Below, piece after piece: positions 19,394 to 59,306 of a stretch of DNA of 64,000 nucleotides; within the stretch, counting starts at the first letter, position 1, and each line of letters begins with the position of its first letter. The stretch is from Escherichia phage vB_vPM_PD112. The stretch is taken from the sequence record NC_054928.1; one strand, written 5' to 3'. Below the pieces are notes generated by a model. That model was given only the letters and a program-made list of their open reading frames with translations. It did no database searches and was not told the origin of the DNA. The position numbers were made by a program, and so were the translations under genes.

Positions 19394-20362
19394 TTATTTC
19401 AGAAGAGTAACCTCAGCAATTTCTTGCCAACCGTTTTTGTCGGTCATAATAAAGTCAGCAAGATAAAGTGCAGTACGCAGTGAAACATTGCGTAAACGGT
19501 TAACATTGACTTTCATCCATGATAATGCTTTATAAGTTTCTTCATCAGAAAGACCGCGCTTTTGCATCATGTCGGTTGAAAGAATAACATCTTCAACCCT
19601 GACCATAATTTCTTCATTAGTGTGAACACCCAAATCCAAATAAACTGAGCGGGATACTAATGCTTGTAAATGTGGAGCAAGTTTAGTACCACGGTCTAAT
19701 TCGCGGTCAATGTCAACGTTTGTGATAAAAACAATCGTTCCTTTAAATTCAAACTCACGCTCAATGCCTTTTTCTTCTAAGTAAGAAGATGCAGTGCTCC
19801 AGCAGACTTTACGGGTCTCTCCAGTGTCCAGAGCGGCTTTTAGAAGATTAAGAATGTCCATATCAGAGAAAACATCCACATCATCAATCAAAAGGACAGA
19901 ATTCTCTTCACGATTATTCCAAAGTTGTTCATAAAGACCGATACCGGAGATTTTACCGTTAATGCTTTTATATTCAATGTATCCATTATCATTTGCTTTA
20001 TTCAAAGCTTTATCTAAAGAATACGTTTTACCAATACCTGCTGCACCAGAGATAATTAATGAACGAATGTTTCCGTTAATAATACCATTCGTCATCATTC
20101 CCATAACATTAAATCTTTTATTAATGCGGGTTTTCATATCTTCATACGATTCTTTAACTTCTTCAACTTTTACACCATCATATGAAATGTCTGATTTGTA
20201 AACCCAAACACCGCGACGTTTACCGTCAATTTCAACAAAAACTTTACCATCTCCTTGTGCATCTACCGGAGCATTATCTGGGAACCATTCACCTAAGAGC
20301 TCAAAAGTTCCAGAGATTTCTTTACCGAAGTAGATACCCTTATTGATAGTTACAGTTTTCAT
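19394..20362 (-). CDS. P-loop ATPase (AAA-like)
   Basis: Walker A GAAGIGKT, Walker B LLIDDVD; ATG at residue 5 with GGAGAA SD; own early promoter. Confidence 0.6.
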   Translation of the reverse strand: MKTVTINKGIYFGKEISGTFELLGEWFPDNAPVDAQGDGKVFVEIDGKRRGVWVYKSDISYDGVKVEEVKESYEDMKTRINKRFNVMGMMTNGIINGNIRSLIISGAAGIGKTYSLDKALNKANDNGYIEYKSINGKISGIGLYEQLWNNREENSVLLIDDVDVFSDMDILNLLKAALDTGETRKVCWSTASSYLEEKGIEREFEFKGTIVFITNVDIDRELDRGTKLAPHLQALVSRSVYLDLGVHTNEEIMVRVEDVILSTDMMQKRGLSDEETYKALSWMKVNVNRLRNVSLRTALYLADFIMTDKNGWQEIAEVTLLK

Positions 20363-20398
20363 TTTATTCTCCAATTTTACATTTGTTTTGATAGGGTA

Positions 20399-20428
20399 AT
20401 AGTATCACACTACTACCCTGCTGTAAAC
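20399..20428 (-). promoter_or_regulatory. T4-type early promoter
   Basis: GTTTACA N17 TGATACTAT on minus strand, upstream of ATPase gene. Confidence 0.5.
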
Positions 20429-20431
20429 AAT

Positions 20432-20695
20432 TTATTTTAATGTTCGCCAAATTTTTACTGCTTCGCGACGAGATACTTCTACAGCTCCAAGTTCTACAGC
20501 TTTTTGGCGTCGCCGAGCGTGTAAGTCATAATGTTTAATGCGTTTATCTTGAAACCAAGAACGTTTCATTCCTATTGCTTCTGCCATTTCGTGAAGCTCT
20601 TCAATATCTCCATCAGTGAACATATGACAATTTTTAGTTGGATGACCGCGAAGTTTCCATCCATGATTCATTAAAACATCTACGTAAACTGTCAT
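20432..20695 (-). CDS. DUF4031-like small protein
   Basis: MTVYVDVL...HMF...ELHEMAEAIG...SWFQ pattern recalled from DUF4031 family. Confidence 0.5.
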   Translation of the reverse strand: MTVYVDVLMNHGWKLRGHPTKNCHMFTDGDIEELHEMAEAIGMKRSWFQDKRIKHYDLHARRRQKAVELGAVEVSRREAVKIWRTLK

Positions 20696-20841
20696 TGATT
20701 CTTCTCCAAATAAGTTTCGATAATTTTCTGAGCGAGATAAACTGCATTATCTTCAGTTGCATCTTCTAAGAAACTTTCAAAACACTCTGAAATTTCTTCT
20801 GTGTCAATCAACTTTTTTACTTCAATTGGTGTAATTTTCAT
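20692..20841 (-). CDS. small hypothetical ORF (49 aa, below track cutoff)
   Basis: Hand translation MKITPIEVKK...; stop overlaps downstream ATG (ATGA); sits just downstream of an early promoter. Confidence 0.4.
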   Translation of the reverse strand: MKITPIEVKKLIDTEEISECFESFLEDATEDNAVYLAQKIIETYLEKNQ

Positions 20842-20878
20842 TTTGTTTTTCCGTTTAAGTGTTTGTTTTGATAGTTGT

Positions 20879-20908
20879 ATAGTACCATAAAGCTTTATGC
20901 TTGTAAAC
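20879..20908 (-). promoter_or_regulatory. T4-type early promoter
   Basis: GTTTACA N17 TGGTACTAT; follows terminator hairpin. Confidence 0.5.
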
Positions 20909-20937: not shown

Positions 20938-20958
20938 AGGGAGCCCGAAGGCTCCCTA
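20938..20958 (-). terminator. rho-independent terminator after nucleotidyltransferase gene
   Basis: GGGAGCC-TTCG-GGCTCCC hairpin followed by T-run on minus strand. Confidence 0.65.
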
Positions 20959-21972
20959 TCATTTATAATAACTTCGGTGGTTTTCAAGATAGACCTTCTC
21001 AAGGAAGTCATCCCAGAAACTCATGTCTACTGTTTTAGGCATACCGTTCTTAGAAGCTTCAGTAGATGCTGCTTCTACTTGATCGACCACATCTTCCAAA
21101 AACTCTTGAACCGTTTTAAATGGATGTTTACCCAACTTCACGTCAAGAATAAATGGAGCGTCTTGAAGTGGATAAACCAAGTCACCAGTTTTGTAAATTT
21201 CCAATAGTTGAAGTCCACCACGACAAGCATGGCTCAGAGCTTTCCAGTCAATACCTTCGTTGGCTTTGGCCTTACGGGCACGTTCACCATATTCAGCATC
21301 TAATTTGTTCAGTGACTGCTTAAGCTCAATAAGAGAAAGCGTTGTCTGATATTTACGACCCAACACAGTGTAGAACATTTGCGGGCCTGTTTTCTCATAA
21401 TTATGGAACACCCATTCACAGAACTCGTTTTCTGGAAGACGATGCTTAATATCTTCAACTTTAGTGCGACGAAGTCTATCAGGGATTCCTTCTTGATAGT
21501 CGACCCACTGGTCAGGGATTTGATTAACTACTTTCAATACATCACGTAATGCGGCCAAACGAGAACCCTTGACACCGTATTTAGAAGCTTGCTTACGGAC
21601 ATATCCTAAATAGGATTTCATGTTAGTCGTATAAAAACGAGAACGGTTGTCTTGAATAAACTTCCACACATCAGGCAAATCAGATTTAACCACTAGCTCA
21701 GGTGGAGTGTGAAGCATATCTAATGCTACAGTTTCACCATCTGCTGCTAATTTAAAGAAATACTTAAGACTGTATAGTTCATGGTCAATATCATCTTTAG
21801 TGTTTTTAGATGATGTGTTGTTAGTGTTTTTACTCATGTGCTCTTTAACGTTTCCAATAAGAATATCACGAGCAGGAGGAACAAAGATTTCTTTAAAATC
21901 TACATCAGATTCTGGAGTAGAAGTTCCATAAAGATGACTACCAAAATAACTTTTCATTACTGTTTTCATCAT
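20959..21972 (-). CDS. Pol-beta superfamily nucleotidyltransferase-fold protein
   Basis: N-terminal GSHLYGTSTPESDVDF (GS...DxD NTase signature); 337 aa with helical C-terminal half; terminator hairpin directly downstream. Confidence 0.55.
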   Translation of the reverse strand: MMKTVMKSYFGSHLYGTSTPESDVDFKEIFVPPARDILIGNVKEHMSKNTNNTSSKNTKDDIDHELYSLKYFFKLAADGETVALDMLHTPPELVVKSDLPDVWKFIQDNRSRFYTTNMKSYLGYVRKQASKYGVKGSRLAALRDVLKVVNQIPDQWVDYQEGIPDRLRRTKVEDIKHRLPENEFCEWVFHNYEKTGPQMFYTVLGRKYQTTLSLIELKQSLNKLDAEYGERARKAKANEGIDWKALSHACRGGLQLLEIYKTGDLVYPLQDAPFILDVKLGKHPFKTVQEFLEDVVDQVEAASTEASKNGMPKTVDMSFWDDFLEKVYLENHRSYYK

Positions 21973-21978
21973 TCAGCC

Positions 21979-22431
21979 TTATATTCCAATAACAGGACAC
22001 ACTTTAGCTTTACGAGCTTTTAAAAATTCAACGATAATCGATTTCTTGGGTTGAATAGGAGGTAAACCTTTATACGCCCTATCAATGTTTTCTACGTGTA
22101 AAGCATAATCCTTTTTCCATTTATAATCTTTATATTTTTCACGCAAATGTGCAGGAATAACAAATGAACCGATAATAAGTAAAACAACAAAAAGCGCAAG
22201 TATAAATGCCGATGGAAGAAGAATCCATAAACTACCGAAAATAAGCCAACGTTGTAGGCTTTCTGCACAAATAATTGTTAGCCCTACGAGTATAGCACAT
22301 CCAAAAATAGAAACGAAAAATGTAGGAATGGCAATAGACCAAAAATATGCGCATAGTGTCTTAGGTCGTTGCCATTCATCGTTAAACAATTTGAATAATT
22401 TATAGTGCCAAGAGTTTTCATTAATAATCAT
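21979..22431 (-). CDS. integral membrane protein (2-3 TM helices)
   Basis: Long hydrophobic stretches; ATG start. Confidence 0.55.
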   Translation of the reverse strand: MIINENSWHYKLFKLFNDEWQRPKTLCAYFWSIAIPTFFVSIFGCAILVGLTIICAESLQRWLIFGSLWILLPSAFILALFVVLLIIGSFVIPAHLREKYKDYKWKKDYALHVENIDRAYKGLPPIQPKKSIIVEFLKARKAKVCPVIGI

Positions 22432-22433
22432 AA

Positions 22434-22955
22434 TTATCCTTTCATTGAAGGTGTAACAGTTGTTAAATACTTAATCATAGCCTCAGCTTCTGATTTTGAT
22501 AATGAAATTTCTCCATTGTTTTGACGAATAGAAATAAAATCCGGATGACGGTCACCACCAGCTTTTAAAACACACATATAAGTATCAGTTTCATCTTCAA
22601 TATTTGAAATGATTGAAGCAGTTCCACATGAATGCGGTTTTTGATAAATCAATACAGCTTTTCTTCCGCCATTTGACTGTTCATAAACTTTTAATACATC
22701 AAACAAATCACTTCTTTTATCAATAGCTAAAATGTTATTTTCATCTTCAATGTTAAATCCTTCGGATACTTCATAAAGTGTCACCCATAAATCGCCAATA
22801 TCAATAACAGCGTTCACTTTTCCATGACTTTCAAGAGCATGACAAATTTTCTTGATTTCGTCATAACTCATTTTAATAATATCATCTCCTTGACTAAGAA
22901 AGATGTCATTTTTAAATTCAACACGAATTAAACCGCTTCCACTTGAAATAAACAT
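22434..22955 (-). CDS. hypothetical protein, paralog A of tandem pair
   Basis: C-terminal ...EGFNIEDENN...SKSEAEAMIKYLTTVTPSM resembles next gene. Confidence 0.5.
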   Translation of the reverse strand: MFISSGSGLIRVEFKNDIFLSQGDDIIKMSYDEIKKICHALESHGKVNAVIDIGDLWVTLYEVSEGFNIEDENNILAIDKRSDLFDVLKVYEQSNGGRKAVLIYQKPHSCGTASIISNIEDETDTYMCVLKAGGDRHPDFISIRQNNGEISLSKSEAEAMIKYLTTVTPSMKG

Positions 22956-22961
22956 ATTTCC

Positions 22962-23504
22962 TCACTTTGAAATCATAGTTGGAATAACAGAATCAAGATA
23001 AGTCTTTAGCGCAATAGCTTCGTCTTTGGTAAATGTGACAATATGTGCTCGAGAATCATCAATTTGACGAATAGTTAAGACATCTCCTTCTTCATAGCAT
23101 TTTGATACATTTAAAACAGTTTCATCATTCTGATCGCACTGATCGCAAGCGTTAGTAATAATAGCATTGCAATTTTTAAGCCATTTTAAACTATGTTTTC
23201 TTTCATTAGAATAATAAAAATATTTAATGTAAGTTATAAAATTATCCCAATTATTAATTGATAAGCATATTGACTCGCTTTCAATGTTAAATCCTGGGCA
23301 TAAAGAATAGAAATGAATTTTATGCTCATCATTAATGCTTACAATTTTATCAGTATAAGGATATTCAATTTGGGTTAAATGAATGATTTCACTAGGCGTA
23401 AAATATAGCATATCGTCTTCTTGCGTCAAACGATACATGTTATTTACTTTTTCTATAGCCAATTCACCAAAAAGCGGACTAACTTCTAGTACTAATCGTT
23501 TCAT
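22962..23504 (-). CDS. hypothetical protein, paralog B of tandem pair
   Basis: Track ORF from GTG; ATG at residue 8; shares ...PGFNIESES...TKDEAIALKTYLDSVIPTM with paralog A. Confidence 0.5.
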   Translation of the reverse strand: MKRLVLEVSPLFGELAIEKVNNMYRLTQEDDMLYFTPSEIIHLTQIEYPYTDKIVSINDEHKIHFYSLCPGFNIESESICLSINNWDNFITYIKYFYYSNERKHSLKWLKNCNAIITNACDQCDQNDETVLNVSKCYEEGDVLTIRQIDDSRAHIVTFTKDEAIALKTYLDSVIPTMISK

Positions 23505-23505
23505 A

Positions 23506-23772
23506 TTAATCCTTTTTATTGGCACGAATTTGTTCTAAAATTTTAGAATATTCCTTTGTATCAGATTTACGTACAATTGATACACTATAAGGCATACTAT
23601 CGGTGTCTTTTATAAAGCGTTCCAAATGACACTCTAACAAAATTTCTGGATTATAAATCGTGTACATCAAATTACCTGTTGCTCCACGATATTGGCAGAT
23701 TTCTACTGATTGAACACCATTCCATAATTTTGTTAAAACTAAATCACCTACTTCTAATTTAGGAAAGCCCAT
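23506..23772 (-). CDS. hypothetical protein
   Basis: Track ORF from TTG; ATG at residue 5. Confidence 0.45.
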   Translation of the reverse strand: MGFPKLEVGDLVLTKLWNGVQSVEICQYRGATGNLMYTIYNPEILLECHLERFIKDTDSMPYSVSIVRKSDTKEYSKILEQIRANKKD

Positions 23773-23773
23773 G

Positions 23774-23959
23774 TTATTCACCAATTAAAGTTTCAATATA
23801 AGAATCAAGATTTACTTTAGCTTCTTCCATAAGAGTTTTGTATTTAATCTTGTTAGCATGTCCGGAGAAAGCTGATTCATCAATAATTGTTGATGTATGA
23901 ACAGCTTTACTATACGTCTCAATTAATTCTCTTAATTTAAAAGCCTGCTCACTTGTCAT
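23774..23959 (-). CDS. hypothetical protein
   Basis: ORF track; ATG start. Confidence 0.45.
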   Translation of the reverse strand: MTSEQAFKLRELIETYSKAVHTSTIIDESAFSGHANKIKYKTLMEEAKVNLDSYIETLIGE

Positions 23960-24091
23960 TACATACTCCTTTGAATAATATCAATAATGTTATTCACCAG
24001 ATTATAAGTAAACATTGGGTAATTATATTGAATCATCACATACACAACAAACAAAACTTTCATTCTCTTCTCCTTGGCAGTTGACAAGATT

Positions 24092-24121
24092 ACTATACCA
24101 TAACCTTGCCAACTTGTAAAC
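24092..24121 (-). promoter_or_regulatory. T4-type early promoter
   Basis: GTTTACA ... TGGTATAGT on minus strand. Confidence 0.45.
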
Positions 24122-24123
24122 CA

Positions 24124-24297
24124 TTAAATGACGTTTTCAATAAAATTCTGAAGCTTTGTATGAGCATCAACCATGATTTTCATTTCTTCTTTGGCGAAAG
24201 CTGTACCTCTTTCCCGAGCAGAACACTCATAGTCAGAAACTGCATTAGCATATTCTTCAATTAGTTTCATTAAAAACATCTGCTTTTCAGTTTTCAT
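24124..24297 (-). CDS. small hypothetical ORF (about 57 aa, below track cutoff)
   Basis: Hand translation MKTEKQMFLMKLIEEY...; fills gap 23960-24286. Confidence 0.3.
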   Translation of the reverse strand: MKTEKQMFLMKLIEEYANAVSDYECSARERGTAFAKEEMKIMVDAHTKLQNFIENVI

Positions 24298-24882: not shown

Positions 24883-24912
24883 ATAGTATCACAGCTCAAA
24901 TGGAAAGTAAAC
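24883..24912 (-). promoter_or_regulatory. T4-type early promoter
   Basis: GTTTAC ... TGATACTAT; follows terminator. Confidence 0.45.
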
Positions 24913-57753: not shown

Positions 57754-59306
57754 GTAACAATACATATCAGCACGTATCAAATGAATCAAAATATGTTAAA
57801 TTCGATCCTACTGGATCGAATTTTCCTGACACTGTCACGACAGTGCAGTCTGCATTATCAAAAATAAGTAATATCGGTGTAAATGGTATTCCTGATGCAA
57901 CTATGGAAGTTAAAGGAATAGCAATGATTGCGTCAGAGCAAGAGGTTTTAGATGGAACTAATAATTCTAAAATCGTTACACCAGCTACATTAGCAACAAG
58001 ATTATTGTATCCAAATGCTACTGAAACTAAGTATGGTTTAACGCGCTATTCAACAAATGAAGAAACATTAGAAGGCTCAGATAATAATTCATCAATAACG
58101 CCGCAAAAACTGAAATACCATACTGACGATGTGTTCCAAAATAGATATTCGTCTGAGTCATCAAACGGGGTTATTAAAATATCATCTACACCTGCAGCTT
58201 TAGCTGGAGTTGATGATACTACAGCAATGACTCCATTAAAAACGCAAAAACTTGCAATAAAATTAATTTCACAAATAGCTCCTTCCGAAGATACTGCATC
58301 AGAATCTGTGAGAGGTGTAGTTCAATTATCTACTGTTGCGCAAACTCGTCAAGGAACTCTCCGCGAAGGATATGCAATTTCTCCGTATACCTTTATGAAT
58401 TCTGTTGCAACACAAGAATATAAGGGTGTTATACGTTTAGGAACACAATCAGAAATTAACAGTAATTTGGGAGATGTTGCAGTAACAGGTGAAACACTAA
58501 ATGGTCGAGGAGCTACTGGTTCTATGCGTGGAGTAGTTAAATTAACGACGCAAGCCGGTATTGCCCCTGAAGGTGATAGCTCTGGTGCATTAGCATGGAA
58601 CGCAGATGTAATTAATACTCGTGGTGGACAAACTATTAATGGTTCTTTAAATTTAGACCATCTTACAGCAAACGGAATTTGGTCGCGTGGCGGAATGTGG
58701 AAAAATGGCGATCAACCTGTTGCCACTGAAAGATATGCGTCCGAAAGGGTTCCAGTTGGAACTATTATGATGTTTGCGGGTGATTCAGCACCTCCGGGTT
58801 GGGTTATGTGCCACGGCGGAACCGTGTCAGGAGATCAATATCCTGATTATAGAAACACAGTTGGAACAAGATTTGGTGGTGATTGGAATAACCCTGGCAT
58901 TCCTGATATGCGAGGTCTTTTCGTCAGAGGAGCTGGCACAGGAGGTCATATTTTAAATCAACGAGGACAAGATGGTTACGGGAAGGATAGACTTGGTGTA
59001 GGATGTGACGGAATGCATGTTGGTGGTGTTCAGGCACAACAAATGTCATACCATAAACATGTTGGTGCCTGGGGGGAAAATGGAAATAACAGAGGTTATG
59101 CACCGTTTGGCGCATCTAATGGCAGTGGATATTTAGGCAATGGTAGAAGCGCCGACTGGGACAACCATTTGTTCTTTACTAACGACGGATTTGAAATGGG
59201 TGGTGCTCGTGACTCGTTTGGCACGTTAAACCGTGAAGGATTAATTGGTTATGAAACTAGACCATGGAATATATCATTAAACTATATTATTAAAATTCAT
59301 TACTAA
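57750..59306 (+). CDS. 12: short tail fiber protein gp12
   Basis: 518 aa (T4 527); repetitive N-terminal shaft, His-rich C-terminal head. Confidence 0.9.

Follow-up and report, generated by a model that had tools for sequence, protein, structure and literature searches.

A T4 NrdC.11-type nucleotidyltransferase of the RlaP family encoded last in an early transcription unit of Escherichia phage vB_vPM_PD112

In Escherichia phage vB_vPM_PD112, an early transcription unit on the minus strand ends in a gene for a 337-aa protein with an N-terminal nucleotidyltransferase (NTase) signature, next to a gene for a 150-aa membrane protein. The unit lies in a stretch of 64,000 nucleotides of sequence record NC_054928.1, which is referred to here as the window. 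It raises the question of what the enzyme acts on, and whether the enzyme and the membrane protein work together. A preliminary description of this DNA had offered three functions for the enzyme, a signalling cyclase, a nucleotide-modifying anti-defense enzyme or an RNA 3'-end repair enzyme, and had likened the two adjacent genes to a nucleotide-signalling defense or counter-defense module. Its observations proved largely right and its interpretation was partly supported; among the three functions, RNA 3'-end repair is the one that the evidence supports. The enzyme is a 'long' Pol-beta NTase of the RlaP family, and we consider it likely, by analogy with characterised relatives, that it adds 1-2 nucleotides, without a template, to the 3'-OH of damaged RNA as a tRNA-repair counter-defense.

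Identity and predicted fold of the nucleotidyltransferase

The NTase was 94.7% identical over 337 aa to T4 NrdC.11 (NP_049709), and its gene occupies the same position as in T4, between nrdC.10 and mobD.1; on identity and gene order, it is the T4 NrdC.11 ortholog. RefSeq annotates T4 NrdC.11 as a nucleotidyltransferase, and a match to the nucleotidyltransferase domain COG3541 dates from 2006 (PMC1524935). No characterised T4 gene had been recognised in the unit at first; the synteny comparison with the T4 nrdC-tk interval supplied nrdC.11 for the NTase and mobD.1 for the 187-aa protein encoded upstream. Orthology to a named nrdC.x gene with an unrelated function had also been raised. The orthology is there; the function is not unrelated, the family function being among the options offered. 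Many NrdC.11 homologs in GenBank and UniRef are labelled 'thioredoxin' and one is labelled 'HNH homing endonuclease', which apparently are errors spread from the locus name nrdC.

The protein matched Pfam RlaP (PF10127) with 43.7 bits against a gathering cut-off of 23 (E 3.4e-11), and PHROG 388, 'nucleotidyltransferase', with an E value of 8e-137. A hidden Markov model search of all six frames of the window matched this gene alone and revealed no second RlaP. The family is large, with 3,492 clusters at 50% identity (E<=1e-3), and the 1,516 phage records that contain the NTase extend from T4-like phages with many different hosts to jumbo phages.

The catalytic signature of Pol-beta enzymes is G-S...D-x-D...D. 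The N-terminal motif GSHLYGTSTPESDVDF, from which the NTase had been proposed, is present in the 337-aa protein. When 50 relatives of 33-54% identity were aligned, the signature residues G11, S12, D23, D25 and D63 were invariant, so the catalytic acidic residues, the loss of which had been considered, are kept. Also invariant were G16, S22, N57, Y132, R231, K244, H248, R251 and P268, and D85 was conserved in 46 of the 50. A profile comparison aligned the GS...DxD...D of the phage NTase with that of canonical RlaPs. Together with the PF10127 match, the G-S...D-x-D and third Asp bear out the proposal of a Pol-beta-type NTase that closes an early transcription unit.

A confident AlphaFold2 model built from the alignment of the 50 relatives (pLDDT 93.9, pTM 0.82) predicted an NTase domain (residues 1-115) and a helical domain (214-336), with helices at 119-150 and a six-strand beta insert at 155-209 between the two. 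The beta insert is found in all 50 relatives, with 22% identity, and accounts for the ~60 extra residues relative to canonical RlaPs.

Evidence for a role in RNA repair

The name 'RlaP' was reportedly given to PF10127 by Burroughs and Aravind for its RNA ligase linkage, the family having been defined in 2016. In jumbo phages, RlaPs track RNA ligases, as described by Iyer and colleagues, and the predicted role of the family is to refill nucleotides lost from cleaved RNA ahead of ligation (PMC7824862). Two Pseudomonas RlaPs, PfRlaP and PaRlaP, were characterised by Carruthers, Fatma and Huang in a bioRxiv preprint of December 2025 (PMC12776372). Both add 1-2 nucleoside monophosphates (NMP) or dAMP to RNA 3'-OH ends, require Mn2+, prefer nicked-tRNA mimics, use dATP efficiently and are inactive on DNA and on E. 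coli proteins; they partly rescue the aminoacylation of a tRNA short of one anticodon-loop nucleotide (PMC12776372). The crystal structure of PfRlaP, solved by the same authors, has a helical domain after the NTase domain and a C-terminal helix that returns to the latter, and T4 NrdC.11 was placed in cluster 5 of the sequence similarity network of the family (PMC12776372).

The genomic context of cellular relatives was surveyed with one genome per prokaryotic species, which gave 80 loci in bacteria and archaea where the homolog was full-length, at 30-53% identity; all open reading frames (ORFs) within 6 kb were clustered, and recurrent clusters were annotated with Pfam. RtcB was found at 11 of these loci, Ro60/TROVE at 5, Pnkp at 4 and Hen1 at 4. 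At 23 of the 80 (L012, L023, L026, L039, L064 and 18 others), the long form (~320 aa) was directly followed in tandem by a canonical, short RlaP of 255-290 aa that matched PF10127 over its full length (E 4e-75), and the stop codon of the one often overlapped the start codon of the other. Some of these long-short pairs lay inside RtcB/Ro60/Pnkp-Hen1 islands, and the Nitrosospira locus L039 has the order Ro60, RtcB, long RlaP, short RlaP, Hen1, Pnkp. Given that bacterial full-length homologs adjoin RtcB, Ro60, Pnkp/Hen1 or a second RlaP, the RNA 3'-end repair option gains support. In an hhalign comparison, the long and the canonical short RlaPs matched with a probability of 90% (E 1.6e-6) over 116 N-terminal columns, that is, over the NTase domain only. 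This profile match and the RNA-repair context indicate that the long form is a distinct RlaP branch in the same biological setting, and the tandems suggest that long and short RlaPs work as a pair or divide the work, with a distinct sub-role for the long form.

In the course of events that we propose, host RNA polymerase would initiate early in infection from the promoters at 24912 and 24121, continuing as far as the terminator at 20938. The resulting transcript would carry mobD.2, the DUF7438 and tudor genes, those for MobD.1, its paralog and the two-helix membrane protein, and NrdC.11, which would be made from the last cistron. If a host anticodon nuclease of the RloC type cut a tRNA and trimmed a nucleotide, phage Pnkp would heal the ends, NrdC.11 would restore the nucleotides removed from the cleaved anticodon loop, by analogy with the Pseudomonas RlaPs, and RNA ligase 1 (Rnl1) would seal the break, with a fraction of the repaired tRNAs becoming functional again. 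Rnl1 is a 5'-phosphate ligase that requires a 3'-OH. T4 has the ligase and kinase genes rnlA, rnlB and pseT, whose products would use a 3'-OH product and which lie far from nrdC.11 in T4. The RNA substrate, the addition of 1-2 nucleotides and the counter-defense role in this phage are what we infer from this analogy.

Several observations weigh against this assignment. The PF10127 match spans residues 7-136 of the NTase against model positions 23-143 of 249, which is the N-terminal part only. The C-terminal half and the 60-residue beta insert (153-212) are without counterpart in canonical RlaPs, and with this divergence the substrate could differ. At least one of RtcB, Ro60, Pnkp and Hen1 was present within 6 kb in only 15 of the 80 cellular loci, and no RNA ligase or kinase gene is near the NTase gene in the window. 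The preprint calls T4 NrdC.11 an 'RlaP of unknown function' (PMC12776372). Finally, T4 tolerates a laboratory deletion of nrdC.11 through mobD.3, for which no phenotype is given (PMC9825161), a tolerance that fits an accessory counter-defense role. Set beside the canonical RlaPs, including those of Pseudomonas, the phage NTase reaches the Pfam gathering score, has the G-S...D-x-D and third Asp, is predicted to have an NTase domain with a helical domain after it, and has bacterial relatives in RtcB, Ro60 and Pnkp/Hen1 islands, whereas it is ~60 residues longer through a poorly conserved insert, aligns in sequence over its N-terminal third only, and is encoded by a gene without an adjacent ligase.

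Other substrates and the adjacent membrane protein

Aminoglycoside and lincosamide NTases modify small molecules, and MNT antitoxins AMPylate HEPN toxins. Structural neighbours of the NTase model included kanamycin, lincosamide and spectinomycin NTases and an MNT, and its fold matches among viral models were phage 'nucleotidyltransferases' of many lineages. With such neighbours, with a C-terminal half and beta insert specific to the NrdC.11 type, and with a tRNA cluster in the phage, as in T4, the target could be other than broken RNA, namely a small molecule, a protein or intact tRNA 3' ends (CCA maintenance). We regard this as unlikely. Pfam matched the protein to RlaP only, with no aminoglycoside NTase, AbiEii or CCA-adding family among its matches, no gene for a HEPN or toxin partner lies alongside, and the genes that recur near the bacterial homologs are RtcB, Ro60, Pnkp and Hen1; in addition, RlaP labelled neither DNA nor E. 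coli proteins (PMC12776372). The phage NTase further differs from kanamycin NTase and MNT in that there is no family-level sequence match and no toxin or antibiotic context, and in the conserved residues of its helical domain, R231, K244, H248 and R251.

The closest solved structural relative of the NTase was Hailong HalB (PDB 9dbh), a likeness that is one of the generic minimal NTase fold. Searches of PDB sequences with the protein, with the 50-sequence profile and with the canonical RlaP profile returned nothing meaningful. Hailong combines an NTase with a membrane effector, HalA, which is described as forming a tetrameric channel across the membrane and bearing a crown domain in the cytoplasm (PMC13434031). 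HalB, a tetramer of 217-aa subunits with a priming C-terminal tyrosine, makes oligo-dA; it has no detectable sequence similarity to the phage NTase, the homologs of which have an RNA-repair context instead. It seems very unlikely that the long RlaP, with its own beta insert and divergent C-terminal half, goes beyond the filling of RNA ends and, like HalB, produces a short polymer or signal of (deoxy)nucleotides, whether to silence a host DNA-gated effector or to act with the two-helix membrane protein. In a more specific form, a HalB-like enzyme would produce single-stranded oligo-dA, protein-primed or free, as a decoy that keeps the HalA channel of a host Hailong system repressed. This would agree with the efficient use of dATP by the characterised RlaPs (PMC12776372) and with a tyrosine in the C-terminal helix, Y328, that is conserved in 39 of the 50 relatives. 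However, the terminal tyrosines are not conserved and Y328 is predicted to belong to a well-ordered helix and not to a flexible tail, no sequence link to HalB was found at E<=10, profiles included, and the bacterial homologs accompany RNA ligases rather than HalA-like channels. The Pseudomonas RlaPs did not extend DNA and halted after 1-2 additions (PMC12776372), and the 150-aa neighbour is a two-helix protein far smaller than the tetrameric channel with a crown domain that a review describes for HalA (PMC13434031), no direct comparison with HalA having been made. The chance that the phage enzyme supplies such a decoy appears slight in the extreme.

The 150-aa protein had been described as an integral membrane protein with multiple transmembrane segments; its hydrophobic helices were predicted as described, but they number two. 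Its conserved N-terminus reads SWHY..RPKTLCxYFW, and a basic C-terminal tail of 58 aa carries KARKxKVCP. Residues W8, H9, P23, C27, K141, K143, C145 and P146, two of them Cys, are invariant, and they stay so in Klebsiella, Citrobacter and Erwinia phage relatives of 28-35% identity. The positive-inside rule makes it probable that both ends are cytoplasmic. The AlphaFold2 model, with helices at 26-64 and 71-120, was of low confidence (pLDDT 62, pTM 0.28), and no Pfam, PADLOC or NCBIfam family matched the protein. It was found in 843 phage records, all of them Tevenvirinae of enterobacteria and only some of the Tevenvirinae; on this distribution and its sequence conservation, it is a conserved Tevenvirinae membrane protein.

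The NTase and this protein could form a two-part nucleotide-signalling or counter-defense module, in which the enzyme makes a signal and the membrane protein senses it or executes the response. Here, 6 nt separate the two genes, and in Gaprivervirus VR25 they overlap by 4 nt; they share a neighbourhood in Moonvirus, Jiaodavirus and Winklervirus as well, with zero to three genes between them across the four genera, and the probably cytoplasmic motifs of the membrane protein are strongly conserved. Proximity of this kind is expected anyway, because T4-like genomes show general synteny, and in three of the four genera (Moonvirus, Jiaodavirus and Winklervirus) the pair is interrupted by one to three unrelated genes. 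An obligate pair was rejected, as T4 keeps the NTase and has no homolog of the 150-aa protein anywhere in its genome. The enzyme is present in 1,516 phage records, including those of Aeromonas, Acinetobacter, Vibrio and Sinorhizobium phages, against 843 for the membrane protein, so that ~670 records have the NTase without it, and no membrane protein recurred beside the NTase homologs within 6 kb at the 80 cellular loci. Neither protein matched a PADLOC or a Pfam signalling family; more broadly, no gene of the unit had a useful match in NCBIfam or in PADLOC 2.0 (2023), a defense collection that may predate Hailong. With bacterial homologs that pair instead with RNA-repair genes, the proposed module is not supported, and we find it scarcely credible. 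The best explanation has the membrane protein, like the other genes upstream, as a co-transcribed neighbour of the enzyme rather than its partner.

Three further assignments were rejected: an aminoglycoside NTase, on the Pfam match to RlaP only; an MNT-HEPN or AbiE toxin-antitoxin system, as no MNT/AbiEii NTase with an adjacent HEPN/AbiEi partner was found; and a CD-NTase/CBASS-like cyclase, as neither the fold, nor the family match, nor an adjacent sensor effector was of that kind.

The transcription unit and its neighbourhood

The features of the unit and its surroundings are collected in Table 1. All six minus-strand genes of the preliminary description were recovered, with ORFs of 61, 92, 187, 173, 150 and 337 aa separated by gaps or overlaps of <=20 nt; the unit has a seventh gene, however, the 34-aa mobD.2 homolog, which had been missed. 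This ORF has an AAGGAG ribosome-binding site 7 nt 5' of its ATG, encodes a hydrophobic N-terminus, and shares 1 nt of its stop codon with the next ATG.

Table 1. Positions in the window of the genes and transcription signals in and around the unit that ends in the NTase gene (position 1 is the first letter of the window).
Feature	Position	Strand	Remarks
T4-type early promoter	24092..24121	-	GTTTACA, 17-nt spacer, TG-extended TATAGT; predicted start near 24085
mobD.2 homolog, 34 aa	23959..24063	-	31/34 residues as in T4 MobD.2; between the promoter and the 61-aa ORF
DUF7438 protein, 61 aa	23774..23959	-	Pfam PF24219, E 1.4e-15
Phage tudor-domain protein, 92 aa from TTG	23506..23784	-	Pfam PF24144, E 2.7e-40
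MobD.1 ortholog, 187 aa	22962..23525	-	85% identity to T4 MobD.1
MobD.1 paralog, 173 aa	22434..22955	-	Pfam T4_y05I_N and T4_y05I_C
Inner-membrane protein, 150 aa	21979..22431	-	two predicted transmembrane helices, ~28-56 and ~67-92
Nucleotidyltransferase, 337 aa	20959..21972	-	T4 NrdC.11 ortholog, RlaP family PF10127
Intrinsic terminator	20938..20957	-	8-bp GC-rich stem, UUCG loop, U6 tail
Second early promoter, same type	24883..24912	-	extended motif; upstream of the unit
Cassette 49-aa ORF	20692-20841	-	inserted relative to T4
Cassette 87-aa DUF4031 protein	20432-20695	-	inserted relative to T4
Extended early-promoter matches	8215, 16018, 18986, 20428, 20908, 24121, 24912, 29124, 36183, 40137, 40467	-	exact motif

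The early promoter and the terminator that had been placed at 24092-24121 and 20938-20958 were confirmed by motif, by hairpin and by conservation in T4, where both signals are almost base for base alike, the promoter lying upstream of mobD.2 and the terminator right after the stop codon of nrdC.11. The promoter (24120-24092) was the top sigma-70 match of the region, with 10 of 12 positions and the extended TG, and the terminator (dG -17.7 kcal/mol, z -4.4) begins 1 nt past the NTase stop codon. The extended early-promoter motif GTTTAC-N14-16-TGnTAYWRT matched the window exactly at 11 sites, each of them on the minus strand, while 0.03 matches were expected from shuffled sequences; it thus represents a real promoter class rather than chance. 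A single promoter had been thought to bracket the unit. A second early promoter lies upstream at 24912-24883, no terminator-like site was found between it and the promoter at 24121, and the nearest upstream terminator is at 24945-24928; transcripts therefore probably also enter the unit from upstream, which would make it nested in a longer early transcript. Regular-expression searches of 20.9-24.1 kb found neither MotA-box middle promoters nor TATAAATA late promoters, and an Rfam scan of 19.0-26.5 kb gave a single sub-threshold chance match, over the terminator.

The 61-aa protein has a paralog just upstream of the promoter, the 57-aa MobD.2a-like protein (24124-24297), which also matched PF24219 (E 5e-15). 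In T4, the counterpart of the latter, mobD.2a (58049-58165), is apparently frameshifted or truncated to 38 aa, with the remainder readable in another frame. The tudor protein probably starts in truth at ATG 23772, which would give 88 aa, and its PF24144 match begins at residue 5. For the MobD.1 ortholog, which matched T4_y05I_N and T4_y05I_C (PF24449, E 1.7e-40; PF24448, E 1.9e-23), the true start is probably ATG 23504, preceded by an AAGGA ribosome-binding site, for a protein of 180 aa. Its homolog in Escherichia phage vB_EcoM_IME537 (4809-5368) is split by a frameshift, appearing as two tblastn segments and annotated with 137 aa, whereas the gene is intact here (22962-23525). The tandem paralog pair that had been proposed was upheld: the 187-aa and 173-aa proteins share 28% identity (E 2e-11) and the same Pfam domains and are true paralogs. 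PHROGs agreed with the Pfam assignments of the genes of the unit. PHROG 4859 gives the 61-aa DUF7438 protein the name 'helicase loader', and RefSeq calls mobD.4 'molybdopterin-guanine dinucleotide biosynthesis protein MobD'; in each case the label seems to be an artefact of a name.

A stretch of 7.2 kb around the unit matched phage vB_EcoM_IME537 at 99.9% identity and several hundred Tequatrovirus genomes at 95-99%, with >=80% of it covered in one piece in 411 of the 735 matching records; by these matches, the window is from a Tequatrovirus. When it was compared with the annotated T4 record, and each ORF was searched in T4 with tblastn, the region fell, on the minus strand, in the T4 accessory interval tk-nrdC, with the gene order tk, rI.1, rI, rI.-1, mobD.5, mobD.4, mobD.3, mobD.2a, the unit studied here and nrdC.10. 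The 61-, 92-, 173- and 150-aa proteins had no tblastn homolog anywhere in the T4 genome. T4 carries a free-standing HNH homing endonuclease gene, mobD, between mobD.1 and nrdC.11 (PMC2988022). It occupies the place of the 173-aa and 150-aa genes, directly upstream of nrdC.11, and T4 differs as well in having neither the DUF7438 and tudor genes nor the cassette with the 49-aa and DUF4031 genes. Judged from these genomes, the unit is the usual Tequatrovirus form of the accessory interval mobD.2a-nrdC.10 and T4 is a variant.

This cassette, of 480 bp, is located on the minus strand between the nrdC.11 terminator and nrdC.10 (20399-20908). It is bordered by two copies of an early promoter and leader, at 20908-20879 and 20428-20399 (direct repeat D5, spacing 480), and a repeat search found this duplicated promoter leader only. 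The cassette looks like a gene insertion through recombination between promoter repeats. Beyond it, the NrdC.10 ortholog (19394-20374) is a P-loop NTPase with 98.8% identity to T4 and with weak, sub-threshold matches to STAND and AAA families. nrdC.10 adjoins nrdC.11 in T4 and is absent from Gaprivervirus VR25, so its product is not an obligate partner of the NTase.

As a near-identical copy of a named T4 gene, in a family already characterised biochemically in 2025, the NTase gene itself adds little that is new. The 11 matches of the extended motif provide a quick map of the strong early promoters of phage vB_vPM_PD112, and the tandems of long and short RlaPs in bacterial RNA-repair islands may be of interest to the RNA-repair field. 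If NrdC.11 does refill the nucleotides excised by RloC, it would be the missing third part of the T4 tRNA-repair counter-defense, beside Pnkp and Rnl1.

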